A stretch of DNA of 64,000 nucleotides. It comes from an uncultured candidate division Zixibacteria bacterium. GTDB lineage: Bacteria; Zixibacteria; MSB-5A5; RBG-16-43-9. Where the stretch lies: contig OY970208.1 in NCBI GenBank assembly GCA_963713865.1, positions 1,176,520 through 1,240,519 on the forward strand. Reading direction: 5' to 3'. Below the pieces are notes generated by a model, which was not told where the DNA came from, ran no database searches, and worked only from the letters and a program-made list of their open reading frames with translations. Made by a program: the position numbers and the translations under genes. This document shows positions 4,014-62,862 of the stretch, piece by piece (within the stretch, counting starts at the first letter, position 1; the number at the start of each line of letters is the position of its first letter).

Positions 4014-4176
4014 CAGATAAATAAAGGTTCAAAGGTTCAAAAACTCAATGGTTTAAAGGGAAATGAAAAAAGAAGATTAAAACATAGAAGTTAAAATGTT
4101 TCAGTGCTTATCAGTTCCTATGAGGTAGAAATACCTCGGGGATTTATCCCCTCTCCTTTTTAAGGAGAGGGTCGGA

Positions 4177-5628
4177 GTGAGGTTATTTTTTCGCTCACAT
4201 CTTTTTTTCATCCTTCGGCATCCGTCGTTAGTAGTTATTTTTTTAATCTGTCATCTTCTATTTTGCTTTCGTTATTTTCTATTTGTAGGTGATTTATTGG
4301 ATAAACAATATCTCTGGAGAAAAGCGCTTAAAGACCCGCTCTATTTTGCCCGTGAATTCTTAGAGATTGAGCCTCATCCCGGTCAGGCCCTCTGGCTAAA
4401 GAGCTCAATCAAACCAGAAAACGCACTGCACACCGGGAATCGCTGGGGGAAAAGCCTTTGCCAGGCGATAAAAATCGTTCATCGCTCGATTTTTAAAATC
4501 CGCAAGACTAGATATAATACCACAGAAAAATATACGGCAGTAAATGTATCTGTAACCCTTGACCAGGCAAAGATAATCTTCGATAAAGCAGTCGGTTTTT
4601 TAAAAGGGAAAAAGATATTAGAGCCTTTGGTTCAGGATATAAGGTCAACTCCGTTTCCACATATCGTCTTCTCCAATTCTGCGGTTTTCTGGGCACGCTC
4701 CACTCAGAGAAAAGGGGAATATCTTTTAGGATATGATTATGACTATTGTAATTTCGATGAAGTTGCCTTTGAGCCTCATCCTGAATATGTGGTTAATAAT
4801 GTGATTATGATGAGACTTTGTGATCGAGCCGGGATGTTAGATTATACTTCTACCCCTAAGGGTAAAAACTGGTTCTATCGCAAATGCTTAGAGTTAAAAT
4901 CTCATCTAGAATATGGATATGTCCAGGGGGGCGACACCCGGGAAAATTCTCATATCTCCACTGAGTATATTCAAAGGAAATTGAAAACACTGTCAAATTC
5001 CAAGGTCGAGCAGAATATAATGGGAAATTTTATAGATGACCCGGATCAGGTTATAGAGGAAAAATATATCAGTCAGGCAACCTCAAATTCTTCTGGACTT
5101 TCTTCTCCTAAAGAAGGACATCGCTATTCAACTGGATGGGATTTAGCGCGAAAAAGAAACTATACCGTAGGGATAACTTTAGACATTTCCAGCAAGCCAT
5201 ACCAGCTGGTCTCCCTGGAGAGATTTCAAAGGGGTTGGAAAGAGACGATTGAGTCGATCAGGAAAAGAAAGAAGGATTATGGGGGAGAGGTTTTGATAGA
5301 TTCAACTGGTTTAGGGGATGTGATCTTAGAGGAGTTAAAAGATATAAATGTTAGAGGGTTTAATTTCGGGGAAAAAGGGGGAAAGGTTAAATCTGAGCTT
5401 ATTGCCAATTTGCAAAAGGAGCATTCATTAAGTAATATTGCTTATCCTTATGTTGAGTTTATAGAAGAAGACGGTTCCCTGTGGTCTTTACAGGATGAAT
5501 TAAGGGATTTTACTTGGGATACTAAGGAAAACTGTGATGCGGTGATGGCACTAGCGTTAGCCCTGTGGAATGTGAGAACCCCGGAACAGCTTCCCCTGAT
5601 TCTGGTGCCGAGGGTGGAAAAAATCTAA
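4177..5628 (+). CDS. Phage terminase large subunit-like ATPase-nuclease (TerL); true start probably an internal TTG near 4296 preceded by aggtga RBS
   Basis: Q-motif (EPHPGQ) about 15 aa before Walker A-like GNRWGKS; Walker B-like YCNFDEVAF; coupling motif YTSTPKGKNWFY; C-terminal RNase-H-like acidic clusters (GWDLARKRNYTVGITLD, LIDSTGLGD, TKENCDAVMALALALW). First 40 codons overlap a repeat element and look non-coding. Confidence 0.7.
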   Translation: MRLFFRSHLFFILRHPSLVVIFLICHLLFCFRYFLFVGDLLDKQYLWRKALKDPLYFAREFLEIEPHPGQALWLKSSIKPENALHTGNRWGKSLCQAIKIVHRSIFKIRKTRYNTTEKYTAVNVSVTLDQAKIIFDKAVGFLKGKKILEPLVQDIRSTPFPHIVFSNSAVFWARSTQRKGEYLLGYDYDYCNFDEVAFEPHPEYVVNNVIMMRLCDRAGMLDYTSTPKGKNWFYRKCLELKSHLEYGYVQGGDTRENSHISTEYIQRKLKTLSNSKVEQNIMGNFIDDPDQVIEEKYISQATSNSSGLSSPKEGHRYSTGWDLARKRNYTVGITLDISSKPYQLVSLERFQRGWKETIESIRKRKKDYGGEVLIDSTGLGDVILEELKDINVRGFNFGEKGGKVKSELIANLQKEHSLSNIAYPYVEFIEEDGSLWSLQDELRDFTWDTKENCDAVMALALALWNVRTPEQLPLILVPRVEKI

Positions 5629-5669
5629 ATTATAGAGGCAAGGGTGTATGGCATTACATCCCTATTTAT

Positions 5670-6314
5670 CTAAAAAGGTAGAATCTCTTTTATCTTTGGC
5701 AGAAAAGTCTTGAGAAAATCTTCAAGCACAAGCTGAGCTTCTTTTTCCGAGATCTGGTTTAGAGACAGGTTTATGCGGACAAGGACGGCATCAGTAGGTG
5801 CTCTTTTTAACGAATTTAAAACCAGATCTAGTTTCAATCCTAACTCGCTGGTTATTATCCTGCTTCTGGTTTGAAACCAGTAATACATAACTTCTCTGGA
5901 CAGCTTATCGGAGATCAAAAGTTTATTTACCTTAAGGTCTGAGCCTGTATCTGTTTTGATCAGAATCTTCCTTCGACTCATAATCTTCCAGCCGCTACCG
6001 GGCAGGCAGTTCTTGGGGGAGTGAATCTGTGAACCATATTTCTGGCTCTTAAAATAGGCGATGAAAAGCCAGAGTTCTTTTCCTTCACTACTGGTATATT
6101 TCCTGAAAGCATAAGTATCAGCTTTGAGGACCTGGTTGGTCTCATCAGAAAAGAAATATTCCTGACCGTTCCAGTCTGCGTACTGAAGAGGGAGAGAGGA
6201 AAAGAGAGGGAATCTCTTCGATTCGACTCGAGAGTAGCGCAGGATATTTATCAGTATCCCGGTTAGAACAAAAAGGATCAGGACTATCCAGAATTCTTTT
6301 TTTTTAAAGCCCAT
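5670..6314 (-). CDS. EpsI-family protein (exosortase-associated EpsI-like), N-terminal TM anchor
   Basis: 214 aa; N-terminal TM helix; motif IHSPKNCLPGSGW matches the HSPxxCLPGxGW signature I recall for EpsI; no exosortase gene in window. Confidence 0.45.
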   Translation of the reverse strand: MGFKKKEFWIVLILFVLTGILINILRYSRVESKRFPLFSSLPLQYADWNGQEYFFSDETNQVLKADTYAFRKYTSSEGKELWLFIAYFKSQKYGSQIHSPKNCLPGSGWKIMSRRKILIKTDTGSDLKVNKLLISDKLSREVMYYWFQTRSRIITSELGLKLDLVLNSLKRAPTDAVLVRINLSLNQISEKEAQLVLEDFLKTFLPKIKEILPF

Positions 6315-7853: not shown

Positions 7854-9602
7854 TTATTTGCCGAGATCTTTTCGGCTCCTCTCCGAGGTGGAGACTTTTT
7901 CCCACAAAGCTTTAGCTTGTTTCTGGATTTTCTTTTTACTTTTTAAACCAAACTCTTTTAGACTCTCCTGGCTTAAGGAAGTCCCGATTGAGGCTAAAGA
8001 TTTTAAAGCCAGAGAAGAAGTCTCCGTTTGTTTTTCTCTTTTGAACCAGACTTTTTTCAGGATCAGCTTCTTGAGCAAGGGGATAGCCTCATCTTTACCT
8101 ATCTTGGCCCAGGTTTCCAAAAGGGTCTCTTTCTCCACACGATTTTTATCTCTGAAATCTTTTCTCAAAAATAGAGCTGAGACGTAATCCAGAGCCTCCT
8201 GGGTAGGTAACCTCTGGCTTAATACTTTCGCTGCTTTGAGCCTGAGCCTTTCATCCGGATCCGCTAAGACATTCAAAAGAATGGAAGTTCCCTCTTTTCC
8301 CTCGATGTGAGAGAGAGCTTCTAAGGTCTCTTTCCTTACTCTTATATCCTCATGGGCAATGGTTTTCTTCAGATAGGGGAGGGCAAGGGGGGAGCTGATT
8401 CTTCCGAAGATACCTACGATATTTCTGACCACATACCATCTGCGGTCATAAATCCCTTTGCTTAAAAGATTGATATTCTTTTCCCCTACATTCTCCAGAA
8501 TCGAGCAGACCATCTTCCGGCTGGCAAAATTTTCCAGTTCACCTAACATATCTACAAAATCAGGGATACTGTTCCAGCTTAAAAGGCTAAGATATTTTTT
8601 AACTGAGAAAAGGTCTAAACTTATTTTCTGATTCAAAATCTGGGTCAGGATTCTCATCCTCTCTTTATCTCCAGCCCGGTCAGCTGCTTCTTTAATCCTT
8701 ATGGTTCTATTTGACTGACCTGTATCAGCTTCAGTTTTCTCTAAGTTTTTCAGAAGAAGCAATAACTCTGAGGCTAAATAGAAGTCCCCTTGACCGATCA
8801 GGGAGTCCAAAAGTTTTTCAAAAAGCTTAACTGTCTCTGAAAACTCGTGGTATTCCTTTTCGCTGAAAAGGATTTCCTCTAAAACGGCGAAGCTCTCTTT
8901 TAAGGGTTCGAAGCTTTCGTCTTTCTCTAAAAGGGTTTTTAGCTCTTCTAATTCCTTCTCCGGAACAAGGTCTAAATCCCGGAGAAACCTATCGACTTCA
9001 ATTTTATGGGGTAGCTCTTTCAAATTTTCAGTTTTTCCTTCTAAATTTACCTCAGAATAATAAAGCTTCTTTAAGTCTTTTTCCCCTACCGGTTGAGGTA
9101 AATCGACAAGTTCCTCGCTTAAGAATTCATCCACCACTAAAAATTTTATATGCGCTAATTCTTTTTCCCAGAAAAGGGTAACCAGATCGTCCTCTGGCAG
9201 AGTAGATTTCAGACCACGGCTTATTATCTCCAGAAAAGCAAAAAGCTCTTCCTGGTCCATTCCTTTCTGGAAAGCGATCTCCCTGATCCCATCCCGGTAA
9301 AAGGCAAAGGAGATCCCTTCATCTTTTTTCTCCTCTTTTACGACAACTTTATCTTTATATAATAGTTGAGATTGAGCCACCCTGAATTTAAGCTCCTCGT
9401 TTTCCTGCAGGTAAGCTGAGAGTTTTTTGAACAGGTTATTCTTGAACTCTTTAGGTATAGGATTATCCGCTGGATAGATGCAGAAGATCTTGAGAGTCTT
9501 GATCAAAAGGTTGGTTATCTCCTGAACCCCTTTGGGGAGCTCAACTGAGAAGTTCTGGAACTCTTCTGATTCCGCTTTAACAATTCTTGATTCTTCAAGC
9601 AT
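7854..9602 (-). CDS. HEAT/PBS-lyase repeat protein
   Basis: 582 aa, Glu/Lys-rich; C-terminal repeated helical units (RVRKETLEAL..., ERLRLKAAKVL...). Confidence 0.5.
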   Translation of the reverse strand: MLEESRIVKAESEEFQNFSVELPKGVQEITNLLIKTLKIFCIYPADNPIPKEFKNNLFKKLSAYLQENEELKFRVAQSQLLYKDKVVVKEEKKDEGISFAFYRDGIREIAFQKGMDQEELFAFLEIISRGLKSTLPEDDLVTLFWEKELAHIKFLVVDEFLSEELVDLPQPVGEKDLKKLYYSEVNLEGKTENLKELPHKIEVDRFLRDLDLVPEKELEELKTLLEKDESFEPLKESFAVLEEILFSEKEYHEFSETVKLFEKLLDSLIGQGDFYLASELLLLLKNLEKTEADTGQSNRTIRIKEAADRAGDKERMRILTQILNQKISLDLFSVKKYLSLLSWNSIPDFVDMLGELENFASRKMVCSILENVGEKNINLLSKGIYDRRWYVVRNIVGIFGRISSPLALPYLKKTIAHEDIRVRKETLEALSHIEGKEGTSILLNVLADPDERLRLKAAKVLSQRLPTQEALDYVSALFLRKDFRDKNRVEKETLLETWAKIGKDEAIPLLKKLILKKVWFKREKQTETSSLALKSLASIGTSLSQESLKEFGLKSKKKIQKQAKALWEKVSTSERSRKDLGK

Positions 9603-9707
9603 AATTACTCACGCGGCGAATCCTTTAAAGGGATTTCTACCTTTCTTATTAATTATCGTCAGATTTGAGAAGCTATTTAGAGAAGAAAGGAAGGTATAAG
9701 AGTGAAA

Positions 9708-9735
9708 GTAGGGGTTCAAAATTTTGAACCCCTAC
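9708..9735. repeat. 28-bp perfect palindrome gtaggggttcaaaa/ttttgaacccctac (GGTTCAAA motif family)
   Basis: Exact inverted repeat; related copy at 22240-22270. Confidence 0.7.
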
Positions 9736-9938
9736 TCGTGATTGCCATCCGCCTGCGACGGACTGAACCTGGTTAGTCAAGATTCTTCCGTCAGGTTGGG
9801 GGGGACCTGACGGTCACGTGAAACCATCAGAGCTGTTATACTGAGCCCGTAGGGTGAGGTATCTAAAACCAAAAAGAATAGATTCTTCCTCCCGTAGGGG
9901 GTGACAAAAAATGGTTTTCTACTTTTTAGATTGTATTT

Positions 9939-10283
9939 TCAGATATGATTCAGCATCTCATCTGCTATCTGGTTAGCCTTTTCCCAGTCTTCTTCTGAAA
10001 CCCAAAGGCTAACCTCTACAAGTGAAGTAGTTGAATAGCTCCCTAACATTATCCCGATATCCTCACCTTTGATTATGGCGGAAATTCCTGAATTCTGAAG
10101 CGATTCTTTAAGCATTTCTGCATAGAGTCTACTGGGCAGGTTTCGCAGGAGTTTATATTTTATTTCCCCTGGCGTTTCTTCTGGGGACTCCTCCGGAAGT
10201 TCTTCAACTAAAGGCAGGTCGCAGTCACTGCATTTTTCTATACCGGGATTATATTCTGTTTTGCATTTGGGACAGTAGGGCAT
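9939..10283 (-). CDS. Small zinc-ribbon protein (CPKC...CSDC) of unknown function
   Basis: 114 aa; N-terminal CxxC-x12-CxxC. Confidence 0.4.
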   Translation of the reverse strand: MPYCPKCKTEYNPGIEKCSDCDLPLVEELPEESPEETPGEIKYKLLRNLPSRLYAEMLKESLQNSGISAIIKGEDIGIMLGSYSTTSLVEVSLWVSEEDWEKANQIADEMLNHI

Positions 10284-10508: not shown

Positions 10509-11441
10509 TTACCGATTCGGAAGGCTGAAATCTTCCGCTACAGCTTTTCTCACAAATCCACCTGCTTTTCTTAATCTTTTTTCTGCTTCAATTTTTTCAA
10601 CTTTAGCAAGTATCATTACCAGAGCGGTTTTTACTTTACCTCCTGAAAGACGGAGATATTTTTCAGCCTGTTTATAATTGACTCCAGTAACCTCCATAAT
10701 AATACGCTTTGATCTTTCGGATAGTTTCTGACTTTTTACCTGCAGGTCAACCATCAGATTCTGATAAACTTTGCCCATTTTTATCATAGAGCAGGTGGTG
10801 AGCATATTCAAAATCAGCTTCTGGGCAGTTCCGGCTTTCATCCGGGTAGAGCCGGTTATAACCTCAGGACCTAAGACCGGGGAGATTGTTACATCTGGCT
10901 TAACTTTGAGCTTTTTCCCAGGGTTACAGAAAACAAATATAGTTTTTGCTCTTACTTTTTTAGCATATTTCAAAGCACCCAGGACATAAGGGGTTCTTCT
11001 GGATGCGGCTATTCCCACTACTACATCTTGTTTTTTTAATCCCACTTTTTTTAAATCTGTAGCTCCGGCTTTGAGATTATCCTCTACTCCTTCTCTTGAC
11101 CTTATCAAACATTTATATCCACCCGCGATGATTCCCTTTATCATTCTCGGGTCAGTTCCAAAAGTCGGAGGACATTCTGCCGCATCCAATACTCCTATTC
11201 TCCCGCTGGTCCCGGCTCCGATGTAAAAAAGTCTGCCACCTTTTTTAAAAGATTTTACAATAAGCTCAACACCTCTGACTATCTGGGGAATGACTTTTTC
11301 AATAGATTTAGGGACTGTTTTATCCTCAGCATTAATCAGTCTCAAAATCTGTAGGGTGGATTTCGAGTCAATGTCAAAAGTAGCAGGATTTCTTGCTTCG
11401 GTAATTAAATTTTTGATCTCGTTAAAGACTTTTCTGGACAA
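10509..11441 (-). CDS. murQ: N-acetylmuramic acid 6-phosphate etherase (SIS domain)
   Basis: YIGAGTSGRIGVLDAAECPPTFG and overall MurQ-like sequence. Confidence 0.85.
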   Translation of the reverse strand: MSRKVFNEIKNLITEARNPATFDIDSKSTLQILRLINAEDKTVPKSIEKVIPQIVRGVELIVKSFKKGGRLFYIGAGTSGRIGVLDAAECPPTFGTDPRMIKGIIAGGYKCLIRSREGVEDNLKAGATDLKKVGLKKQDVVVGIAASRRTPYVLGALKYAKKVRAKTIFVFCNPGKKLKVKPDVTISPVLGPEVITGSTRMKAGTAQKLILNMLTTCSMIKMGKVYQNLMVDLQVKSQKLSERSKRIIMEVTGVNYKQAEKYLRLSGGKVKTALVMILAKVEKIEAEKRLRKAGGFVRKAVAEDFSLPNR

Positions 11442-11460
11442 AAAATATTGCTCCAGTTAC

Positions 11461-12207
11461 TTAAAAAGTAGTTACATATATGATGGCTTTTCGAGCAATA
11501 ACTCCAGCACCAATTGTTCCTTTTGCTCCGGATATATTATTAGCCGGCAGACCCGTAGGGAGATCAAATGGTGTATCAGGATAACTTACAAAACTTTTGT
11601 TGTAGGCTACGATATAGATCAAGTAATAACCATATACTGGATTCCCCATTCCTGTTGTATAAAAAGCCTGTTGGGGGATGCTTATGGGTGAGCCATCAAC
11701 CGTGGCACTGTACAATAGAGCTCCAGAAATAGTATCACCCTTGGCAACACCAATTATATATCCATCAGCATTATTTGAGGTTGTCCAGCTTACTTGAATA
11801 GGAAGGTCCTGTATCCTAAAAGTATCTTTGTTTGGAGAAGTTTGAGCACTAAAAGTATCCGGCATAGTAAAACCGAAAGTTATAGTTACAGTATCCTGTG
11901 AACTTATGATGGAATCAGTATAGGCGGTTTTCACATGGAAAGTAGTATCCGCAAAAAGAGAATCATATAAACCGGAACCGCTATTGAGTATGGTTTTATT
12001 TCCTACTTTGACAGTTGCACTATTGTAAAGAGTGTCATTTCTCGAAATGGTGAAATAGACAATATCTTTTGAGAAATTCATATCCTTAACCACTGCTCCA
12101 TAGATAGTGAAAGTCGGTTTTTTAGAGCTTGGTCCAGTGGGTTTCTTTCCGCAGGAGTAACCAAATAATAAAACTGCAGTCATCAAAAATAAAATTATCT
12201 TTCTCAT
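11461..12207 (-). CDS. Lipoprotein, function unknown
   Basis: Signal peptide ending in lipobox-like GYSCG; no recognisable domain. Confidence 0.45.
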   Translation of the reverse strand: MRKIILFLMTAVLLFGYSCGKKPTGPSSKKPTFTIYGAVVKDMNFSKDIVYFTISRNDTLYNSATVKVGNKTILNSGSGLYDSLFADTTFHVKTAYTDSIISSQDTVTITFGFTMPDTFSAQTSPNKDTFRIQDLPIQVSWTTSNNADGYIIGVAKGDTISGALLYSATVDGSPISIPQQAFYTTGMGNPVYGYYLIYIVAYNKSFVSYPDTPFDLPTGLPANNISGAKGTIGAGVIARKAIIYVTTF

Positions 12208-13433
12208 CTTAACCCCTCCAATCCGCCTACGGCGGATTTAAAGTTTTTCATCCTCTCTAAAGCTTCTTTTATCTTATCCTCAGGTACGGTCAAAGAGAAT
12301 CTTAAATACCCTTCACCTTCAGAACCCAAGCCAGAGCCGGGTGTGGTTAATACCCCGGCCTTTTTTAAAAGCTCTAAACTAATCCTCTTTGAACTTTTTT
12401 TACCGGGTATTTTAGCCCAGACAAAAATTCCTCCTCTGGGTAATTCAACTTCCCAGCCTAAGGATTTCAAAGCCGGAACTAAAATATCTCTCCTATTCTT
12501 ATATGTTCGACATAATTCTTTCGTAACTTGAGGAGGAAGTGAAAGTGCAGTTATGGCAGCTTTTTGAATCACGTGAAATACCCCTGAATCCAGATTTGCT
12601 TTCAAATTCCGTAAAACCCGGATAAGTTTTCTGTTCCCCACTACAAATCCCAGTCTCCAGCCAGTCATAGAGTAAGTCTTGGAAAAAGAATGAAACTCCA
12701 AAGTATGTTCTTTTGCACCGGGAATCTCTAAAAGGCTAAAAGATTTCTCCCTATCAAAAGTTATCTCCGAATAAGCCATATCGTTGCATAAAATTATTTT
12801 ATTCTTTCTGGCAAAGCTTGTTGCTTTTTCCAGGAATTTTTCTGGAGCTAAAGCCCCGGTGGGATTATTAGGATAATTCAGGTATAAAAGTTTTGTTTTA
12901 GCTAAGACTTTCTTATTGATTTTATCTAAATCCGGAAGCCAGTTGTTTTTCTTTAAAAGAGGGGTTTCATAGATTTTCCCTCCTGAAATAATGACTCCTC
13001 TTTTATAGGCAGGATAAGCTGGGTTAGGAACAATAGCATAATCCTGGGGATTCAAAAAAGCCAAAGGCAGATGAGTCAATCCCTCTTTTGAGCCTATTAA
13101 AATTAAAACCTCTTCTTCCGGATCAAGTTTGACTTTGAATCTGCGGTAAAACCAATCAGCGATTGCTTTCTTTAGCTCGACTATCCCTTCATAAACCGGA
13201 TGACGGTGATTTTCCGGGTTGTCTGCTTCTTTTTTTAGAGTCTCGATAACCTCTTTAGGCGGAGGCAGGTCCGGATTACCAGCAGATAAGTCGATTACTT
13301 CAATTCCAGAGTTTATGGCTTTTCTTTTCGCCTCAGCCATCTCGGAGAAGACATATTTGCCTAAGGAGGATAAGTTTTTCATTCGGTCTGAGATTTTCTC
13401 TTGGAGATTAGTTTTCTTTTTCATTTTGTTCAA
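12204..13433 (-). CDS. PLP-dependent aminotransferase, class I/II (aspartate / LL-DAP aminotransferase-like)
   Basis: SFSKTYSMTGWRLGF PLP-lysine motif; 409 aa; 4-bp overlap with downstream gene. Confidence 0.8.
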   Translation of the reverse strand: MNKMKKKTNLQEKISDRMKNLSSLGKYVFSEMAEAKRKAINSGIEVIDLSAGNPDLPPPKEVIETLKKEADNPENHRHPVYEGIVELKKAIADWFYRRFKVKLDPEEEVLILIGSKEGLTHLPLAFLNPQDYAIVPNPAYPAYKRGVIISGGKIYETPLLKKNNWLPDLDKINKKVLAKTKLLYLNYPNNPTGALAPEKFLEKATSFARKNKIILCNDMAYSEITFDREKSFSLLEIPGAKEHTLEFHSFSKTYSMTGWRLGFVVGNRKLIRVLRNLKANLDSGVFHVIQKAAITALSLPPQVTKELCRTYKNRRDILVPALKSLGWEVELPRGGIFVWAKIPGKKSSKRISLELLKKAGVLTTPGSGLGSEGEGYLRFSLTVPEDKIKEALERMKNFKSAVGGLEGLR

Positions 13434-13546
13434 AGTTAATCACTCTTAATTTCATAATGTAATATGAACTCTATTCAAAGCAAGCCTTTTTTGAAGTTTA
13501 AAAATGCGATTGAAAGAGGATGTTTTCCCCCTTTCATTATAGGGAA

Positions 13547-13563
13547 GGGTCAGGGTGAGGTCA
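13547..13563 (+). repeat. GGGTCAGGGTGAGGTCA core of dispersed intergenic repeat (copy 2 of 6)
   Basis: Near-identical 17-mers at 4169, 13547, 17592, 17826, 38772, 63521, each preceded by a CCCCTC...GAGGG-type hairpin. Confidence 0.75.
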
Positions 13564-13709
13564 AAATAAATAAAAAAGGACAGGATAATGTTCTATCCCT
13601 GCAAGAACTGTAACATACGATGTTTCTGTCCGAGAAGTGGATCTGTAGGATCAGACGTTAAAAGTGAAAAATATAAGGGACAGGACGCTATCCTGTCCCT
13701 ACAGAAAAT

Positions 13710-16475: not shown

Positions 16476-16747
16476 TTTTTACCTCCAAATAATTGTTTAA
16501 CCAGACCAACTAATTCAAAAGATTACATTAATACGGAAAATCTTATAAAAATCAAGTAAATTCTGAAAGAATTTGAAAAATGGGGAGGAATAAATAGCGA
16601 TTATTTAGACAAAAATAGTCTAACCTATTGGGTGTCAACGACTTGATTTAGAGTAATTATGGGGTGCGTCATATGGATGCTGCATCCGTAGGATACACTC
16701 CAAAGGTAAAAAGGCATTAACATGGTTAATGCACTCCAAAAAATATT

Positions 16748-17633: not shown

Positions 17634-17825
17634 ATATACCGACACTTTGTAAAAACAGGTTCTTTGGAGTACATCCTACAGATGTAGCATCATTACGGAT
17701 GATGCACTCTATAAGTTACTATCCTGAAAGGGTCGCACTACATTTCCCCCCTCCCTGTCCGAGAAGCGGAGACTACATCTGGCGTCCTACGGACGGGCTG
17801 GCTCGTAGCCACCGTAGGATAGGAG

Positions 17826-17869
17826 AGGGACAGGGTGAGGTAAGAGAAACGAACAGACAAGATGTCTGT
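17826..17869 (+). repeat. Dispersed repeat copy: GGGACAGGGTGAGGTAA plus ACAGACAAGATGTCTGT hairpin
   Basis: See 17592 and 38772. Confidence 0.75.
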
Positions 17870-22239: not shown

Positions 22240-22270
22240 AGAGTAAGGGTTCAAAATTTTGAACTCCTAC
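22240..22270. repeat. Near-perfect palindrome agggttcaaaattttgaactcct (GGTTCAAA family)
   Basis: Compare 9708-9735. Confidence 0.65.
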
Positions 22271-22800
22271 TTCTCCGTTATCTTTATCCTGGTTAGTTTC
22301 CCTCTTTTTTCTTTAACCCTCTCTATTCCCTTATAAGCGGCTTTATTATCCGGGTTAAGTGAATAAGCTAATTGATATTGCACCTCAGATTTATCTAATT
22401 CTCCGGTCATTTCAAAGGAATAAGCCAATGAGAACCTGACCTTAGAAATAAATAGCTTGTCTCCATTTTCTACCTCCATACAAAGTTCAAACTCGGAGAT
22501 AGACTCTTTATAGTGGTCTAATTTCTGGTAGCAGAGACCTAAATAATAACGCGCTTCAAAGTTCCGGGGGTCAGCTATCACGGCCTTCTTAAATTCCTGA
22601 AGCGCGTTGGCATATTTACCCTGGTGATAAAATTTTTTCCCATTAGCCAGATGATTTTGAGAAGCGACTTCTTGGCCATAATTTCTGGTAGGTGGAGGAA
22701 GTGAAACTGGACTTGGCCTTTCTATTACTATCATCCTCTCGGCGCAGTTCAAGGAGAACAATAAAAGCAAAATTGAAAAAAGATTGAATATTCTTAACAT
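22267..22800 (-). CDS. TPR-repeat secreted/lipoprotein
   Basis: Signal peptide; TPR-like helical repeats (YYLGLCYQKL..., AYSLNP...). Confidence 0.5.
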   Translation of the reverse strand: MLRIFNLFSILLLLFSLNCAERMIVIERPSPVSLPPPTRNYGQEVASQNHLANGKKFYHQGKYANALQEFKKAVIADPRNFEARYYLGLCYQKLDHYKESISEFELCMEVENGDKLFISKVRFSLAYSFEMTGELDKSEVQYQLAYSLNPDNKAAYKGIERVKEKRGKLTRIKITEK

Positions 22801-25289: not shown

Positions 25290-26471
25290 TTGGATCTGTT
25301 CGAAAAGTGCAAAAGGTTTACCGAGGCAAAAAAGGTAATGGCAACTGGCTATTACCCTTTTTTCATCCCCATATCCTCCGGACAGGATACCCAGGTAACG
25401 GTGCGGGGGAAAGAGATGATAATGATAGGCTCCAATAACTACCTGGGCTTGACCTCTCACCCTGAGGTTAAACAGGCGGCTATAGATGCCATCAAAATCT
25501 ACGGCTCCGGCTGTACCGGCTCTCGCTTCTTAAACGGAACCTTAGATATTCACGAGGATCTGGAAAGAAAGTTAGCCCAGTTTATGAACAAAGAATCTGC
25601 CCTTGTTTTCTCTACCGGATTCCAAACCAACCTGGGCACTATCTCTGCCTTAGTCAACAAAGGGGAATATATCATAACCGACAGGTCTGACCATGCCAGC
25701 ATAGTGGATGGATGCCGGCTTTCCTTTGGCAAGGTTTTGAAGTTCAGACACAATAACATGTCAGATTTAAAAAGGGTCCTTTCCACCTGTCCTAAACATT
25801 CCGGAAAACTTATCGTGATAGATGGAGTCTTCAGTATGGAGGGGGATATAGCCAAACTGCCGGATATAGTGGAACTGGCCAGGAAATACCACATGCGGGT
25901 TATGGTGGATGATGCCCATTCCATCGGGGTACTGGGTAAAAATGGCAGAGGTACGGCTGAGCATTTTAAATTAGAAGATGAAGTGGATATCATAATGGGG
26001 ACATTCTCCAAATCTTTTGCCTCCATCGGAGGATTTATTGCGGCCAAAGAAGAGGTTATCCATTATATAAAACATTTCTCTAGGGCATTGATTTTCTCAG
26101 CCAGTCCACCACCGGCTGCAGTTGCCACAGTTTCCAAAGCTTTAGACATAATCATTGCAGAGCCAGAGAGAAGAGAAAGACTCTGGCAAATAGCCCGCAA
26201 GATGCACGAGGGTTACAGAGCATTAGGATTTGATATCGGAGATACCGAAACTCCGATAATCCCGATACTAATCGGTGAAAATATGAAGACCTTCAAGTTC
26301 TGGAAGCTGCTTTTCGATGAGGGGATCTTCGCCAATACCGCCATCAGCCCCGCAGTCCCACCCGGCACCGCCCGCATCCGCACCAGCTACACCGCCACCC
26401 ATACCGATGATCAGATGAATAGAGTCTTAGAAGTTTTTGAAAAAGTGGGGAAAAAGATGGGGGTAATATAA
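25290..26471 (+). CDS. Alpha-oxoamine synthase (AONS family); most similar by motif to serine palmitoyltransferase
   Basis: GSGCTGSRFLNGT, VDDAHSIGVLGKNGRG, GTFSKSFASIGGF (PLP-Lys), PPGTARIRTSYTATHT; the SPT versus KBL/BioF distinction is from recalled motifs only. Confidence 0.75.
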   Translation: MDLFEKCKRFTEAKKVMATGYYPFFIPISSGQDTQVTVRGKEMIMIGSNNYLGLTSHPEVKQAAIDAIKIYGSGCTGSRFLNGTLDIHEDLERKLAQFMNKESALVFSTGFQTNLGTISALVNKGEYIITDRSDHASIVDGCRLSFGKVLKFRHNNMSDLKRVLSTCPKHSGKLIVIDGVFSMEGDIAKLPDIVELARKYHMRVMVDDAHSIGVLGKNGRGTAEHFKLEDEVDIIMGTFSKSFASIGGFIAAKEEVIHYIKHFSRALIFSASPPPAAVATVSKALDIIIAEPERRERLWQIARKMHEGYRALGFDIGDTETPIIPILIGENMKTFKFWKLLFDEGIFANTAISPAVPPGTARIRTSYTATHTDDQMNRVLEVFEKVGKKMGVI

Positions 26472-41921: not shown

Positions 41922-42389
41922 ATCAAGAAAGCTTATGAATCTTCAAAAGTATAGCAAGTAATTATTTATTTGTCAACATAAATTACCAAGTGGTTAAATT
42001 GGAGTGTCAAGCTTTAACTTTACAATTTAATAGTAGAAAATTTGCATTAAGATTCACCTTTGGGTCAGGGGACCCAACGGGTTCAATATGGGTAAATAAC
42101 ACTGTTCTGTCCCTACAGGAAGTAGTGGCTCAATCCGCTAGATACGGATGAACCCCTATCTTCCTGATGGTAAGGCGGGATTACGAACTGTCAACTGAGC
42201 GCAGTAAAGCATTCCATCCGCCTGAGGCAGATTCGATTGTCCCCATAGGGACTTCCCCAGAATGGAAAATGGAGCAGGTGTGTGTCGCGCTACTTTTTTT
42301 TGGCTCTACCCAAACACCATAGCGGAATGGTTCCATCCCCAACTAACAAACTCTAAACTCATCCCGCTAAAGGCGGGAATTCGCTTCGC

Positions 42390-44603: not shown

Positions 44604-45026
44604 CTCATTTTTTGAAGTTTTTATTAAGGTTTCAATTTTATCTTCGGGGTTTTCTTGTAAAGATTAACGAAAAAAGAAAATGTCAATTCTTATTAATATA
44701 CGATAACAATTTTTAAACTGTAAAAAAGCAAAACATCTTTTCAATTTATTATTGTTTTCTAAAGTCCTATCAGGTCATAAACCTGACAGGAGAAACTGTG
44801 TCAGGAATAGTTCCTGACACAACTTGAATAGTAGGTAAAGGCTTTGATTTTAAGTTATTTTTTATAACGCGTGGCCGAGCCTTTAGGGTTTGGCAAAGGT
44901 CTGAAACCTCTGCTACGCGACTATATATATCCGCAAGCTGAAGCTTGCGACTACCTCTTCAATAAAAAGAGAAATTTCTTGTCTTTTTAATTGACTATAT
45001 ATATTATATTAGAATTGGAGTGAGAT

Positions 45027-56779: not shown

Positions 56780-56979
56780 GTTTTCTCCTTTTTTGTTCTG
56801 GTTTCTTAAGTCCTAACTCGTCAGGCTTTCAAGCTTAACTTCTCATACCACCTCCTCGAAATATTTTCCAATTAAACTTTTTAACTTTACTTTCATATTT
56901 CCTCCTTTAATATTTTCTAATAATTGCAAAATTCATCGTCTTTCAAACTACAAATTAAACGTTCACCATATTACGCCTG

Positions 56980-57007
56980 TATTAACTCAGTGTTAATTCT
57001 GGGTTAA
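56980..57007 (-). promoter_or_regulatory. Pho-box-like element: three direct repeats TTAACC / TTAACA / TTAATA at 11-bp spacing upstream of the porin-pst operon
   Basis: Hexamers at 57007-57002, 56996-56991, 56985-56980 on minus strand; about 200 bp upstream of porin start. Confidence 0.4.
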
Positions 57008-57400
57008 CAAACATTCACCGGATAATCTGCCTGGGGAAGATGATAGAATACACTTAGAGGGCTAAATTTGCCTCATATCTGTCTTAAAATGTGGTAATAG
57101 TTTAGACTAAAGAGATGACTGGCTGGCAGAACTTTACTTCGTCCCAAGGATGTTTTTTTCAGATTTGTCACCTGAACCAGCATGAGCTATTGATACTAAG
57201 GGTAAGACTAAAAGAAGAATCAAAAAGACTATTAGGTACTTCCTGAAGGTCATTTCTAAACTCCTCTGATATAAAAGTTTTTTACCTTAAAACACTCACC
57301 TGCAGAACAAAATCCTTAAAATTGAGTTAGACAGATTTTACATCATTATTAATGATAAAAACCTGTTGTACTTCTTCCTCTCCGCAACCTCGAGCTGCCG

Positions 57401-57616
57401 TTAATTCTCGTTCATAAAATCTGCCTCAGGTACTTCAAATTCCTCGAATTCCTCAAGTTCCTCTAACTCGATTACTGGAGGTTTAATAAGGGTATATTCA
57501 CCCTCTATGATTTTTTCCACCACCTTAAGGAACTTCTCCGTGCTTAACCCCTGTAACTTGTAGGTTATCCAGCATGTTCTTGGGGGTGGCTTGCTTTTCT
57601 CCTTCGATTCAAGCAT
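57401..57616 (-). CDS. Small acidic protein, unknown function
   Basis: 71 aa ORF with EELEEFEEFE tail; coding status uncertain. Confidence 0.3.
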   Translation of the reverse strand: MLESKEKSKPPPRTCWITYKLQGLSTEKFLKVVEKIIEGEYTLIKPPVIELEELEEFEEFEVPEADFMNEN

Positions 57617-57631
57617 AAGTTCTACCCTGGG

Positions 57632-57853
57632 TTAATGGCTAACCAGCTCGCGATGAAATACACTCCAGTCAGAAGCAGATTGATTAACTTTCTCACAGTT
57701 TACCAATTCCTTGGTGCCGAGAAAGAACGGGCAGTGGCAATATTCGGTGCTATGGCAGAAGCTCTTGAGTTCCAAAAGATTTGGCACCATGCCGTCGAAC
57801 ATCTCAGAATCACACATCTCTATTTTCCCCTGGATCAGTTTGGGACATTCCAT
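57632..57853 (-). CDS. Small Cys-rich protein (6 Cys, CHSTEYCHCP), member of tandem MECPKLIQ family
   Basis: 73 aa; identical RBS and first 8 codons shared with upstream paralogous small ORF. Confidence 0.35.
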   Translation of the reverse strand: MECPKLIQGKIEMCDSEMFDGMVPNLLELKSFCHSTEYCHCPFFLGTKELVNCEKVNQSASDWSVFHRELVSH

Positions 57854-58020
57854 TTTCTTTCACCTCCTCTGTTGATGAATCTTTTTCATTAAATATTTTC
57901 TCAAGTAATTCAAAAACCCACTCAGAATCATCCGTCTTTGTTTTGTCCTGGATTAGCTTGGGACATTCCATTTTCTTTCACCCCCTCTGTTGATGAATCA
58001 TTTTCGTCAAATATCTTCTC
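57826..58020. repeat. Tandem duplication (2 units of about 100-115 bp) carrying RBS GAGGAGGTGAAAGAAA and start ATGGAATGTCCCAA
   Basis: Unit 1 about 57826-57900 and unit 2 about 57945-58020, roughly 90 percent identical. Confidence 0.7.
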
Positions 58021-58143
58021 TATCAGATAAAAGACCCACATACTTGGAGAAAACAGTTGCTTCCCCTTCATTTTCCTTGAAAACAGGTAAGTTAAGGAAA
58101 CAATAGCGGCAAGCGCTATACTCATCAGGATAAATGTCTGCAT
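57928..58143 (-). CDS. Small membrane protein; C-terminus overlaps the tandem repeat
   Basis: 71 aa, N-terminal TM helix; C-terminal VFYLIEKIFDENDSSTEGVKENG paralogous to next unit. Confidence 0.3.
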   Translation of the reverse strand: MQTFILMSIALAAIVSLTYLFSRKMKGKQLFSPSMWVFYLIEKIFDENDSSTEGVKENGMSQANPGQNKDG

Positions 58144-58321
58144 ATCTTTTAATCTTCCTTGCGAATCATTTTCTCATTCATAAAGTCATAAAGTCCATTT
58201 GAACTCGCTAAAGTAAACGATAGCTTGATTTCAGTGAGATTAACTAAAGGTTAAATCTATGTTAAAAAGGTTGGATTAATTAAAAATGTCAGTTGAAGGA
58301 TATGTATGCTGGCAAAAAAGA

Positions 58322-60801: not shown

Positions 60802-60994
60802 AGATAATCTCCAGAAACCTCAAAGATATTATAATTATAATTTCTTGTCCTGGCAAATTAATTTTCGGAAAAAAGATGGAGATGGAAAACCTTTGCCATA
60901 TTAGGTAAGTTTTTCTTTTGACAATGAATGTCGAATTTATTAATATTATCAGAGGATAAGATCCGAAGGAATAGATAAGTAATAAGGAGGAAAT

Positions 60995-62821
60995 ATGTGC
61001 GGGATCATTGGATATGTAGGTGATAAAAAAGCTGTGCCAATCCTCTTGGAGGGGTTAAGAAGATTGGAATATCGGGGGTATGATTCAGCCGGGATTGCTA
61101 TCTTAGAAGAGGAAGGGATAATCTTAGAGAAGTGTGCTGGGAAAGTCTCTGCTTTAGAGAATCTTTTAAAGGGAAAAAGTTTTCACAGTACCACCGGAAT
61201 AGCCCATACCCGCTGGGCAACTCATGGAGAGCCAACAGACCTTAATGCCCATCCACATCTTGATTGCAAAAATAAGATTGCAGTCGTGCATAATGGTATC
61301 ATCGAAAATTACAGGAGCTTAAAAGAGGTTTTATCCTCCAAGGGACATATCTTCACTTCAGACACAGATACTGAGGTCCTGGCTCATCTGATAGAGGAAT
61401 ATTATGAAGGAGATTTAGTAGAGGCAGTAAGGACTGCCTTGACCCAGGTGGAAGGGACCTATGGCATAGCAGTTATCTGCAAGGATAATCCAGAAGAGAT
61501 AGTAGCAGCCAGGCATGGTAGCCCCCTGGTAATTGGTAGAGGAGAAGGGGAGAATTTAGTCGCCTCAGACTGCTCTGCGATCATCCGGCATACTAACCAG
61601 GTGGTCTATTTAGAGGACAGGGAGATCGTTTATGTGACCAAAGATGGGTTTTCTATCTCTACTATAGACAAAGTTGAAGTAACTCCTCATCTGCAGGAGA
61701 TCTCCTGGAACTTAGATCAGATCGAAAAGGGTGGTTTCTCACATTTTATGCTAAAAGAGATCCACGAACAGCCTCTTACCCTGGTTAATGCTATGCGCGG
61801 AAGGTTGAACTACGAAGAAGGGATCTCCCGTTTGAATGGGTTAAACCTTCAATATGAAGAGCTTCACCATATAAATCGGGTTATCCTGACTGCCTGCGGA
61901 ACCTCCTGGCATGCAGCTTTAATCGGCGAATATCTGATTGAGGATTTAGCCTCTATACCGGTGGAGGTGGAATATGCCTCGGAGTTCAGGTATAGAAGCC
62001 CGATAATTCAGGATGGATCAATCGTCTTTGTGATAAGCCAGTCAGGAGAAACTGCTGATACCTTAGCTGCAATGAAAGAAGCTAAGAAAAAAGGGGCAAC
62101 GGTTTTAGGGATATGCAATGTAGTGGGCTCGACCATAGCGCGTGAAACTGATGGAGGAGTCTATATCCATGCTGGACCGGAGATAGGGGTTGCCTCCACC
62201 AAGGCTTTTACTTCCCAGATTTTAGTTTTGACCTTGATCTCTTTGCTTTTGGGCAGGATGAGAAACCTATCCTTAGAAAAGGGGAGGGAAGTAATAGAAG
62301 CATTGAGGACAATCCCGGAGCAGGTGGATTCTCTTTTGAAAAACGATTCTTACATAAAGGAGATTGCCAGAGAATATTATAAGAAAAATAATTTTCTGTA
62401 TCTGGGTCGAGGAATCAACTATCCTGTGGCTTTAGAAGGAGCATTGAAGTTAAAAGAGATTTCCTATATCCATGCTGAGGGTTATCCAGCCGCAGAGATG
62501 AAGCATGGGCCAATTGCTTTAATTGATGAGAATATGCCAGCAGTGGTGATAGCCATAAAGGATAATGTTTATGAGAAGGTATTATCTAATATCGAGGAGA
62601 TAAAAGCCCGTAACGGTAGGGTTATAGCTATTGCAACCCAGGGAGATGAGGAGATCAACAAAAGAGTAAACCATGTGCTCTATATACCCCAAACCTTAGA
62701 ACAACTGACTCCTCTTTTAGCCATCATCCCCTTACAGCTTTTAGCTTACCATATGGCGGTCCTGCGTGGGTGTGATATCGACCAGCCGAGGAATCTGGCG
62801 AAAAGCGTTACTGTAGAATAA
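60995..62821 (+). CDS. glmS: Glutamine--fructose-6-phosphate aminotransferase
   Basis: MCGIIGYVG N-terminal nucleophile; two SIS domains; 608 aa. Confidence 0.95.
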   Translation: MCGIIGYVGDKKAVPILLEGLRRLEYRGYDSAGIAILEEEGIILEKCAGKVSALENLLKGKSFHSTTGIAHTRWATHGEPTDLNAHPHLDCKNKIAVVHNGIIENYRSLKEVLSSKGHIFTSDTDTEVLAHLIEEYYEGDLVEAVRTALTQVEGTYGIAVICKDNPEEIVAARHGSPLVIGRGEGENLVASDCSAIIRHTNQVVYLEDREIVYVTKDGFSISTIDKVEVTPHLQEISWNLDQIEKGGFSHFMLKEIHEQPLTLVNAMRGRLNYEEGISRLNGLNLQYEELHHINRVILTACGTSWHAALIGEYLIEDLASIPVEVEYASEFRYRSPIIQDGSIVFVISQSGETADTLAAMKEAKKKGATVLGICNVVGSTIARETDGGVYIHAGPEIGVASTKAFTSQILVLTLISLLLGRMRNLSLEKGREVIEALRTIPEQVDSLLKNDSYIKEIAREYYKKNNFLYLGRGINYPVALEGALKLKEISYIHAEGYPAAEMKHGPIALIDENMPAVVIAIKDNVYEKVLSNIEEIKARNGRVIAIATQGDEEINKRVNHVLYIPQTLEQLTPLLAIIPLQLLAYHMAVLRGCDIDQPRNLAKSVTVE

Positions 62822-62862
62822 GAAAGCTCAAAGGTTCAAAGTTCAATAGTTCAAGGGGAAAG
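62822..62862 (+). repeat. Post-stop motif GAAAGCTCAAAGGTTCAAAGTTCAATAGTTCAAGGGGAAAG
   Basis: See 26471 and 4024. Confidence 0.7.

Follow-up and report, generated by a model that had tools for sequence, protein, structure and literature searches.

Three arrays of a short direct repeat behind stop codons

Within the 64-kb stretch of Zixibacteria DNA that was analysed (the window), a unit of 7-9 nt resembling GGTTCAAA, with the core GTTCAA, is repeated head to tail in three arrays of 3-5 units each. All three lie on the plus strand, which is the sense strand of the gene before them, and start 0-9 nt past its stop codon; the three upstream genes are unrelated. Array 1 (4023-4063) consists of about 4.6 units of AAAGGTTC, arranged as AAAGGTTC AAAGGTTC AAAAACTC AATGGTTT AAAGGGAAA, and begins 9 nt behind the TGA stop (4011-4013) of a phage-portal-like open reading frame (ORF; 2697-4013), with hairpins at 4121-4151 as its downstream neighbours. 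Array 2 (26472-26507; AG AAAGTTT AAAGGTTC AAAAGTTC AAGGGAAAAAG, ending in AAGGG; 3-4 units) follows the TAA stop (26469-26471) of a class I/II aminotransferase gene (25290-26471) without any gap and is the first element in a 208-nt spacer ahead of corA (26680). Array 3 (62822-62862) adjoins the TAA stop (62819-62821) of glmS (60995-62821) just as directly; its approximately 4.3 units (G AAAGCTC AAAGGTTC AAAGTTC AATAGTTC AAGGGGAAAG, ending in AAGGGG) are followed by a decayed GTAGGGCAAGG hairpin and then by a purine-rich heptamer array. Throughout, the arrays come first after the stop, and unrelated hairpin modules fill the remaining spacer.

The original prediction described a motif of about 35 nt directly behind the stops of three unrelated plus-strand genes. 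The three sites are present as stated, but the fixed motif dissolves on inspection: the 24-mer core of the second site matches nothing else even at 3 mismatches, and what the arrays share instead is a variable number of 7-9-nt units. A cluster scan for at least three units returned these three intergenic sites only, each behind its own unrelated gene, and, within a gene at 31382, a single run of 18 nt that resembles a chance occurrence. Tandem Repeats Finder detected the same three arrays in the window with a period of 8 and 3.1-4.6 copies, at 4023 (4023-4059, 4.6 copies), 26474 and 62823. GGTTCAAA occurs 11 times in the window compared to 3.7 expected, a count reached by 0 of 100 shuffles, and the probability that an array starts at most 10 nt behind a sense stop, computed for 54 ORFs and an intergenic total of 12.2 kb, is 0.019, which for three out of three amounts to approximately 7e-6.

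RNA folding and a separate family of palindromes

The RNA of the arrays is predicted to be unstructured. The minimum free energy (MFE) of (GGUUCAAA)6 is 0.0 kcal/mol, which places it in the top 3.8% of 210 cyclic permutations with a mean of -11.5, and the real window arrays reach 0 to -2.1 kcal/mol and fold no better than shuffles. Terminators and REP/BIME-like hairpins occupy the same site, the 3' flank of genes, but the three window arrays differ from them in having no stem (MFE 0 to about -2 kcal/mol). An intrinsic (Rho-independent) terminator or REP was rejected on this ground and for the missing fixed U-tract, and a MITE or REP-type mobile element was rejected on account of differing array lengths, the lack of inverted termini and the lack of a target-site duplication. 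Covariance models of Rfam 15 gave no match at the arrays or the palindromes, either at the gathering score or at E<=1, and the array sequence was found in no published paper.

Two palindromes of 32 nt, 94% alike and assigned to neither strand, had been regarded as variants of the array motif. They exist at 9706-9737 and 22241-22272 and turn out to be dispersed GTAGGG-hairpin modules of this lineage, a family separate from the arrays. The first (AAGTAGGGGTTCAAAATTTTGAACCCCTACTC; 14-bp stem) lies in the spacer between the minus-strand genes 9939-10283 and 7854-9602 and has only GGTTCAAAA in common with the arrays. In the second, read on the minus strand, the 5' arm holds the TAG stop of a TPR gene (22267-22800). 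Each palindrome arm contains one GTTCAAAA half-unit, the folding energies of the hairpins are -22 to -25 kcal/mol (z-scores -3.8 to -4.6), and a clear U-tract was found behind neither stem. The counterpart of the second palindrome in L360, a relative with 96% identity, occupies the same spacer but lies about 110 nt further downstream.

Arrays in related genomes

Relatives within the Zixibacteria likewise carry arrays flush with sense-strand stops. At the aminotransferase site, relative L028 has one extra 8-nt unit compared to array 2, with otherwise identical flanks. Among the relatives, unit counts also vary in L364 and L124, so that copy number changes between related genomes in whole units. 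The array is kept behind the aminotransferase stop in L360 despite a downstream insertion of DUF4760 and HNH genes, and in L364 despite a different downstream neighbour. The array thus keeps to its upstream gene even where the genes behind it are different, which fits a 3'-UTR element and not a promoter element of the next gene. In L364, the array core is 23/25 identical (92%) at 74% coding identity, and the remaining spacer is unalignable. The array is absent from orthologues at 75-88% identity, where a clean indel without duplication lies between the TAA and the next hairpin. Further array sites were found in L011, L121, L161 and, as a second site after corA, in L028.

A related picture emerges at glmS. 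At >=88% identity, each of the nine GlmS relatives has an array with units of 7-8 nt directly abutting the stop, and in 97%-identical relatives this position is taken by another unit, (GTAGACA)n. Taken together, the missing aminotransferase array and the swapped glmS unit indicate that both the exact site and the exact unit can be dispensed with.

These comparisons bear on a strong rival explanation, namely that the arrays are neutral or selfish simple-sequence DNA, born and grown by slippage and without sequence-specific function. Such DNA would survive where it is harmless, between the stop and the first functional element of the spacer, while a deletion bias would close the gap and purine loading of the sense strand would set the orientation. 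Whole-unit indels, patchy presence among relatives (the extra array after corA in L028, none in the 75-88% orthologues) and the unit replacement at glmS are all in line with it, as is the general richness of sense strands in this genome in purines, both G and A, like the unit itself. The conservation of the array core in L364 above that of coding DNA and the retention of an array at the same spot in all nine close GlmS relatives argue in the opposite direction.

The same octamer in many bacterial phyla

The motif is not special to this genome and belongs to a cross-phylum class: the same octamer array occurs at >=120 genome loci, and across many bacterial phyla there are copies in the same position and orientation. 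Two-unit matches of GGTTCAAA are continued by a third exact core in 57% of cases in genomes and 37% in viral contigs, compared to 6-12% for three control units of the same composition, so that, as a tandem repeat, this unit is preferred to its permutations (37-57% versus 6-12%), with the proviso that samples are small and that the viral collection is an imperfect background. Among the matches listed, 92 arrays from other phyla were related to surrounding ORFs, which were called by length only. In 26 of them a sense stop lies within 10 nt of the array 5' end, compared to 9 with an antisense stop at the 3' end (p=0.006), and 5' ends are anchored to ORF ends approximately 3x as often as 3' ends. 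About one third of the listed arrays are stop-flush and about half are flush with no ORF end. Several arrays, for example those of L042, L052 and L107, fill the whole intercistronic spacer and would have to be transcribed within operons; operon spacers that hold arrays can be just 40-60 nt long.

With regard to neutral slippage, these data again cut both ways. Only about a third of the listed arrays abut a stop, and other unit types adjoin arrays in other genomes, both of which speak for it. Expansion alone, however, cannot make arrays stop-flush, yet 26 of the 92 listed are, nor does it account for the stronger anchoring of 5' ends or for one octamer that outperforms its permutations and recurs in so many phyla. 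The neutral explanation is a serious contender, though less likely than not.

Inverted arrangements open a second alternative, in which the functional unit is an inverted pair, (GGTTCAAA)n-loop-(TTTGAACC)n, that acts as a bidirectional terminator or RNA-stabilising stem, and solo arrays would be decayed halves, precursors or trans-pairing partners of antisense arrays elsewhere. Among the 92 listed arrays, an inverted partner lies downstream in 33 and upstream in none, so that the G-rich arm comes first in 33 pairs and the reverse order occurs in 0. In L009, L018, L067, L079, L094 and L110, such pairs lie in the interval from a stop to either the following start or a convergent stop, and in viral contigs they come directly behind TAA; antisense arrays 4-11 nt upstream of genuine start codons imply that both polarities appear in transcripts. 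The window palindromes display a single-unit version of the pair architecture, and like the inverted array pairs of other genomes they form strong, terminator/REP-like hairpins preceded by an A-tract and followed by a T-tract, the latter not clear behind the palindromes. This alternative is nevertheless improbable. Solo arrays form the majority (59 of the 92 listed) and show a stop-flush polarity of their own (16 sense versus 6 antisense), neither the three window arrays nor their orthologues have an inverted partner in the spacer, and the hairpin modules behind the window arrays are unrelated to them.

Relation to known repeat systems

It is well supported that the arrays are short tandem direct repeats of the long simple sequence repeat (LSSR) or intergenic heptamer-repeat kind, which is defined by at least 3 head-to-tail copies of a unit 5-11 nt long; three sites behind unrelated genes in 64 kb, with further ones in relatives, suggest that they form a dispersed family. 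Equally well supported is that replication slippage adds or removes whole units, and that an array may disappear, reappear or give way to a different type of unit. Among known systems, they most closely resemble the TAACTGA and TTCAAAA heptamer arrays and the LSSRs. Direct repeats of the TAACTGA heptamer have been described in marine Beggiatoaceae, cyanobacteria and some Bacteroidetes as intergenic, polar, ORF-end-flush and cross-phylum arrays with 7-nt indels and predicted lack of structure, and S1, Csp and CsrA have been proposed as their readers (MacGregor, 2015; PMC4679880). Both classes form short head-to-tail runs (2-6 units in TAACTGA arrays, sometimes tens), lie almost entirely between genes, are polar, abut an ORF end with a preference for one orientation, favour one unit over its permutations, are patchy across phyla, differ by whole-unit indels between related strains and are predicted to be unstructured as RNA. 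TAACTGA arrays are dispersed at many unrelated genes; the octamer arrays of the window follow three unrelated genes. Membership in the TAACTGA family was nonetheless rejected, since the unit GGTTCAAA of 7-9 nt is unrelated in sequence to that heptamer and resembles the family in behaviour only. The anchored end is the stop and not the start: octamer arrays begin just past stops on the sense strand, whereas TAACTGA arrays mostly end 1 nt before starts. An ideal GGTTCAAA array holds a stop codon in no frame, whereas TAACTGA carries TAA and TGA, and G-arm-first inverted pairs are frequent for the octamer compared to 1 inverted repeat among 170 sets in 'Maribeggiatoa' Orange Guaymas (BOGUAY).

The cyanobacterial heptamers share with the octamer arrays contiguous short repeats near the ends of many ORFs, a suspected regulatory role and, in the case of Nostoc, a unit (TTCAAAA) nearly identical to the octamer core (G)GTTCAAA(A). 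STRR elements, reportedly described by Mazel in 1990, are said to be heptamers of heterocystous cyanobacteria. The STRR and Nostoc repeats have a period of 7 and are described in cyanobacteria, whereas the octamer arrays have a period of 8 and occur in Zixibacteria and many other phyla; the cyanobacterial repeats are moreover described upstream of start codons and promoters, the octamer arrays behind stops. Ribbon-helix-helix proteins bind contiguous 7-8-bp repeats, direct or inverted, as exemplified by ParG on ACTC boxes every 8 bp and omega on 7-bp heptads in either orientation. In Nostoc PCC 7120, deletion of TTCAAAA/TTTTGAA heptamers upstream of recO altered reporter expression, and the authors speculate that some protein binds the heptamer repeats at the promoter (bioRxiv 10.1101/2022.06.06.494920).

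By analogy with the ribbon-helix-helix proteins, a repeat-binding protein might coat the double-stranded 8-bp repeats as a DNA-level operator and serve as roadblock, insulator or regulator between genes. The Nostoc proposal, the coexistence of direct and inverted arrangements, the conserved GTTC core and the A-rich spacer agree with this. A duplex-binding site would not be expected to show strand polarity towards the neighbouring gene, however, and the arrays inside very short operon spacers count against it as well; the loci inspected contain no candidate binding-protein gene in linkage with the arrays, and one duplex-binding protein common to so many phyla is itself unlikely. An operator of this type is highly improbable.

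LSSRs with units of 5-11 nt have been attributed to polymerase slippage (Mrazek, 2007, as summarised in PMC4679880), which accords with a neutral origin of the arrays. To the extent of that summary, both consist of a short unit in tandem, have a sporadic distribution among phyla and, for unit lengths not divisible by three, lie mostly in non-coding DNA, but the LSSR class is defined by length statistics alone and predicts neither a shared cross-phylum unit nor a fixed position or strand relative to stops.

The GAG/UAG repeats of TRAP, the UAG repeats of HutP and the ARN repeats of Hfq represent evenly spaced single-stranded RNA sites with an oligomeric reader. They resemble the octamer arrays as a way of working only, differing in period, sequence, 5'-leader position and lineage-specific proteins; a homologous relation to these systems is indicated by no result of this study.

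Possible role in the 3' region of transcripts

The original prediction favoured a 3'-UTR element or protein-binding site over random repeats. It is supported in part: the placement is non-random and polar, both in the window and among the matches listed, and the array tracks its upstream gene, which would fit a 3'-UTR element. The contrast with repeats needs revision, as the elements literally are short tandem repeats of the slippage type, in which entire 8-nt units come and go. The favoured, still tentative reading, given somewhat less than an even chance, is that they serve as an unstructured platform in the 3' UTR or between cistrons where single-strand binding would take place. Transcribed together with the gene before it, the array would form the first part of the 3' UTR or of the intercistronic RNA and would remain single-stranded and purine-rich, offering 3-5 identical, evenly spaced sites. 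Lying ahead of the downstream hairpins and behind the ribosome at termination, it could thereby be both a spacer free of structure and a multivalent landing pad. Candidate readers are general single-strand binders, such as OB-fold proteins of the S1, cold-shock or Rho type, or alternatively the 3' tail of 16S rRNA pairing with the repeated AAAGG, and the effect after termination may concern 3'-end stability, termination or re-initiation. Together with an inverted downstream array, the same element would yield a hairpin of A-tract, stem and U-tract resembling a bidirectional terminator.

Several points weigh against such a platform. A universal reader protein would be needed in so many phyla, and 9 arrays among the matches listed have the opposite polarity. 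General purine richness of sense strands in this genome could account for the orientation bias, and high core identity between distant orthologues can reflect homogenisation by slippage instead of selection. Neutral persistence of a repeat would likewise require that it lacks self-complementarity.

A bolder possibility, with only a slim chance of being correct, is that various phyla use (GGUUCAAA)n as a sequence-specific post-termination signal. After release, the ribosome would meet 3-5 evenly spaced, unpaired AAAGG/GUUCA sites, which a conserved single-strand binder or the 16S rRNA 3' tail would read; the same code would then extend to antisense (UUUGAACC)n ahead of start codons and to the G-arm-first inverted pairs. 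If true, such a signal would decide between ribosome recycling and re-initiation, or determine the fate of the mRNA 3' end.

Tandem arrays behind stop codons

Three arrays of a short direct repeat, each with 3-5 units of 7-9 nt and the core GTTCAA, lie on the plus strand behind mutually unrelated plus-strand genes. Array 1 (4023-4063; AAAGGTTC AAAGGTTC AAAAACTC AATGGTTT AAAGGGAAA) starts 9 nt after the stop of a phage-portal-like ORF at 2697-4013 (phrog_3753, E=6e-36). Array 2 (26472-26507; AG AAAGTTT AAAGGTTC AAAAGTTC AAGGGAAAAAG) begins 0 nt after the stop of a class I/II aminotransferase gene (PF00155; 25290-26471), and array 3 (62822-62862; G AAAGCTC AAAGGTTC AAAGTTC AATAGTTC AAGGGGAAAG) 0 nt after that of glmS (60995-62821), whose product contains SIS and GATase domains and a natural C-terminus with the usual ...KSVTVE ending. 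An exact look-up of this GlmS returned no match. Repeats behind the stops of three unrelated plus-strand genes are therefore present as the original prediction had claimed, with gaps of 9, 0 and 0 nt. The fixed consensus of about 35 nt that it had proposed was not recovered, since a search with the 24-nt core of site 2 hit only that core itself at up to 3 mismatches; what the sites have in common is the repeated unit.

The octamer GGTTCAAA occurs 11 times in the window against 3.7 expected copies, and a cluster scan and Tandem Repeats Finder yielded the same three intergenic arrays and nothing comparable elsewhere in the window. Given the 54 ORFs and the 12.2 kb of spacer DNA, chance would place all three starts no more than 10 nt behind a sense-strand stop with a probability of about 7e-6. 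Their shared location on the plus strand, which holds 16 of the 54 ORFs (p ~0.02), may reflect chance or a chromosome-strand bias. The arrays are real and more general than the sequence of the window alone could reveal; their function is a proposal.

Physical properties and possible role

An ideal array contains neither start nor stop codons in any sense-strand frame, and on its reverse strand every frame meets a TGA within 24 nt. The RNA (GGUUCAAA)6 is predicted to be wholly unpaired (MFE 0.0) and ranks within the top 3.8% when set against the 210 cyclic permutations of its letters (mean -11.5 kcal/mol). Real arrays with their flanks fold no better than shuffled sequences, and hairpins start only downstream. 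Every unit contains AAAGG, with which the AAAGGAGG ribosome-binding sites of the window begin.

There is good support for reading the arrays as short tandem direct repeats, dispersed over three sites in the window, that change through slippage, lie on the sense strand and form the first element behind stops. As to a role, the array would be transcribed as the beginning of a 3' UTR or intercistronic RNA, where it could provide a multivalent platform of unstructured, purine-rich single strand, set between the ribosome at termination and the hairpins further downstream. Candidate readers of this platform are a binder of the OB-fold type and the 3' tail of the 16S rRNA; that the units serve instead as a DNA operator array is very improbable. 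Confidence is high for the identity and low for the mechanism, which we infer, and for the two taken jointly it falls slightly short of an even chance.

Many other identities were considered. No Rfam family was found at the arrays, neither at the gathering score nor at E<=1. A small ORF from the ATG after GGGAAA is not conserved because it reads Met-Gln-stop in L028, a contig of a relative. Back-up stop codons were rejected because the ideal array lacks them and the next in-frame stop after glmS follows only 24 codons on, and a translated C-terminal tail (GSKVQRFK) because the stops ahead of the arrays mark natural protein ends. A promoter or leader of the next gene is not compatible with a start distance that varies from 88 to 174 nt and with an array that stays with the upstream gene when neighbours change. 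Four G-runs, as needed for a G-quadruplex, exist in site 1 only, and a MITE or similar insertion was rejected because inverted termini and a target duplication are both lacking. For a tRNA T-loop (GTTCAA), an ECF sigma -35 box, the Bacteroidetes TTTG promoter box, an IHF site or a Rho rut site, spacing or composition seems not to fit, and these readings are considered unlikely.

Distribution and polarity across genomes

A scan for two adjacent units, with one genome per species, retrieved at least 120 loci. The matches listed come from Desulfobacterota, Bacteroidota (including Prevotella and several Flavobacterium isolates, among them F. anhuiense, F. pectinovorum and F. araucananum), Acidobacteriota, Zixibacteriota, Binatia, Chlamydiae and Atribacteria, and further from Brocadiaceae, Ignavibacteria-labelled MAGs and a Pseudomonas isolate (sp. 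TH41). Most of them extend to longer arrays, many of which are followed by an inverted array copy. Among the genome matches listed, 57% have a third exact core; the share is 37% in viral-contig matches and 6-12% for three control units of the same composition, so that GGTTCAAA is a favoured array unit and not one of many equally common octamers. This preference argues against the main rival explanation, by which the arrays are functionless slippage DNA, tolerated only behind stops and oriented by purine loading. A phage origin was rejected, as just 35 matches lie in viral contigs, about one third of them true arrays. A string search of the literature with the two-unit string found nothing relevant. 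Several arrays sit at contig ends, which makes the repeat a practical reason why contigs break in metagenome assembly.

Polarity was analyzed in 92 arrays among the matches listed, all of them flanked on each side by 450 nt or more of sequence; ORFs were called by length (at least 100 codons), and some loci are orthologous to one another. In 26 of the 92, the 5' end of the array has a sense-strand stop no more than 10 nt away; the converse arrangement, an antisense stop equally close to the 3' end, occurs in 9 (p=0.006). Widening the limit to 25 nt gives 34 and 9. The same bias is seen when solo arrays, the kind found in the window, are taken alone (16 versus 6 among the matches listed). This anchoring of the 5' end also speaks against mere slippage DNA. 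The gap between stop and array is typically 1-6 nt long and A/G-rich, so that the stop codon is in effect a first, degenerate unit. In L042, L052, L107 and L050, four loci from other genomes, the array makes up the whole intercistronic spacer. The 5' side also adjoins, at 4-11 nt, genuine start codons of divergent genes, which consequently carry (TTTGAACC)n directly upstream; the N-termini of these genes look real (signal peptides, a LigA N-terminus, an ABC ATPase).

In inverted pairs the G-rich arm comes first in 33 arrays and second in 0, among the same 92. This order creates A-tract/stem/T-tract hairpins with the same reading on both strands. The arrays could also represent the decayed or trans-pairing half of a hairpin terminator, a reading that we consider improbable; as terminators in their own right they were dismissed because they lack a stem.

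Evolution at the aminotransferase gene and at glmS

In L028, whose aminotransferase shares 96% protein identity with that of the window, the array has one extra 8-nt unit between otherwise identical flanks, and the remaining spacer is rearranged. The same contig carries an additional array after corA that is absent from the window. In L360 (98%), a 17-nt hairpin, TCCCGCCTTTGGCGGGA, at 11202-11218 splits the array and looks like a very small mobile hairpin able to land in tandem repeats; similar CCCGC..GCGGG hairpins are dispersed in the window, e.g. at 35803-35825 and 42370-42392. In the more distant L364 (83% protein and 74% coding nucleotide identity) the array is still flush with the stop and 23 of 25 core bases are identical, with a different gene as downstream neighbour. 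Orthologues at 88, 87, 82 and 75% identity have no array, and in those at 82-88% the next hairpin follows directly behind the stop. It follows that presence and absence of the array differ by a clean indel, which is located between the stop and the first hairpin and shows no target duplication, and that the array moves with the upstream gene. Its retention at 74% coding identity is a further point against functionless slippage DNA, although homogenisation by slippage could mimic such retention; on balance, slippage DNA is a rather unlikely explanation, but a more probable one than the operator or the terminator half. The spacer behind the aminotransferase gene appears to be a recurrent insertion point: L360 has a 1.6-kb DUF4760+HNH insertion further downstream of the array (HNH_5, 11336-12883), and in the related locus L361 an HNH_5 endonuclease gene, which the window lacks, follows the aminotransferase 3' region (11265-12182).

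At glmS, all nine relatives with a GlmS identity of at least 88% have a 7-8-nt tandem array flush with the stop, and the unit differs. (GTAGACA)n is found in L161 (97%), L122, L123, L190, L125 and L127, both (GTAGACA)n and (AAAGGYTC)n in L124, a GACAGAT-like array in L126 and only (GGTTCAAA)n in the window, from which the GTAGACA unit is absent. Behind the glmS stop, having some array is kept and the particular unit is not; the swap is most simply explained by differential loss from an ancestor with both arrays. Stop-flush GTAGACA arrays, at glmS and a second gene, map to 11823-11852 in L161, 11830-11859 and 14984-15013 in L122, and 811-825 in L190. The TAG stop of glmS in L161 is itself part of the first unit, and GTAGACA arrays, unlike GGTTCAAA, put TAG into all three frames. 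Purine-rich heptamers on the sense strand of the window precede the gene at 62950 (62897-62924; ACAGATG ACAGATG GAAGATA ACGGATA), a run conserved in L161, L124 and L190, and lie just before array 1 (4003-4022; GATGACA AATGACA GATAAAT), where they overlap the stop at 4011-4013.

Palindromes and other spacer modules

The two palindromes of the original prediction exist (9706-9737 and 22241-22272; 94% alike, with 14-bp stems when folded). Their interpretation as array variants had to be abandoned, because they form a 32-nt family of their own that has just GGTTCAAAA in common with the arrays and resembles the GTAGGG-stem hairpins of the lineage. They start with GTAGG, like other stem-loop modules of the lineage, and one overlaps the TAG stop of a TPR gene. 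In the 96%-identical L360, the equivalent of that copy is found about 110 nt further downstream within the same spacer; no copies were found in the 199 loci examined. The palindromes mirror the G-arm-first inverted pairs seen elsewhere and are, in the window, most sensibly treated as a dispersed hairpin family in their own right.

In this lineage, spacers are patchworks of small modules, namely dispersed hairpin families (D1, D3, D8, I14 and the GTAGGG-stem type) and purine-rich tandem arrays. At least three further dispersed families were delimited in the window: CCCCTCTCC..GGAGAGGGTCAGGGTGAGGT with six copies (4148-4192, 13526-13570, 17806-17850, 27807-27851, 38751-38795, 63500-63544), CGCAGACTTAAGTCTGCGGCTACCG with four (198-222, 44932-44956, 63398-63422, 63640-63664) and GGCATTAACAYGGTTAATGCACTCC with three (16712-16743, 26644-26675, 29361-29392). 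GGAGTGCATCATCCGTGATGATGC hairpins are present as well and, in relatives, occur directly behind stops. A segment of about 1.4 kb (56791-58194), with a 118-nt tandem duplication (57803-58038) and small Cys-containing ORFs, is swapped in the 90%-identical L161 and L121 for 146 nt with a GTTTAAATGTTTAAAGGCTCAAAAGTTCAA array.

Organism and neighbouring genes

The window is bacterial chromosome with about 40% G+C and sense strands rich in G and A. An identical aminotransferase copy resides on a 2.72-Mb NCBI contig, and the named relatives of this protein are nearly all from candidate division Zixibacteria. L028 and L011 (CAZMZF01) are labelled 'uncultured Ignavibacteria' yet share synteny with the window at a nucleotide identity of 80-86%; taxonomic labels are inconsistent here. 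The portal-like gene ahead of array 1 is followed, behind the array, by a terminase-large-subunit-like gene (2697-5628 for the pair; phrog_2, E=3e-27, a match spanning only positions 251-596 of the 807-position profile). In otherwise housekeeping surroundings, the pair may be what is left of a prophage, or a packaging module that has been domesticated. ORF 36582-38060, without internal stop, contains a weak match, below threshold, to the pyrrolysine insertion element PYLIS_3 at 37541-37638 (25 bits versus a gathering score of 38, E=0.47). In L361 and L363, MttB-family genes are syntenic to this ORF, beside the same B12-binding and S-methyltransferase genes.

Relation to known repeats and significance

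Tandem arrays of 7-8-nt units in bacterial spacers (STRR, LSSR, TAACTGA) have been noticed for decades and, to our knowledge, have no known function. The closest described system is that of the TAACTGA heptamers, intergenic repeats of marine Beggiatoaceae, cyanobacteria and some Bacteroidetes (PMC4679880). [quoted passage not shown] Indels of 7 nt distinguish related strains, the RNA is predicted to lack structure, and S1, Csp and CsrA were proposed as readers; Microcystis sets between stop codons have a single chromosomal orientation (MacGregor, PMC4679880). In Nostoc PCC 7120, arrays of the heptamer TTCAAAA/TTTTGAA lie upstream of start codons, and deletion of the repeats upstream of recO changed reporter expression (bioRxiv 10.1101/2022.06.06.494920). 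The arrays of the window behave like both systems and have the general features of the class, and the Nostoc unit resembles the core of theirs. What sets them apart is a unit of other length and sequence, anchorage at stops instead of starts, and the frequency of G-arm-first pairs.

Added here are an octamer common to very distant phyla, its fixed place and strand right behind stops, the strict G-arm-first rule of inverted pairs and two unit families that swap at one gene end among close relatives. These four additions make the question of signal or slippage junk directly testable, and the carriers Flavobacterium spp. and Pseudomonas sp. TH41 are cultivable. If functional, the arrays would constitute a widespread, overlooked layer of post-termination or 3'-UTR control; if not, they would provide a clean model of how selection positions non-coding simple repeats in compact genomes.
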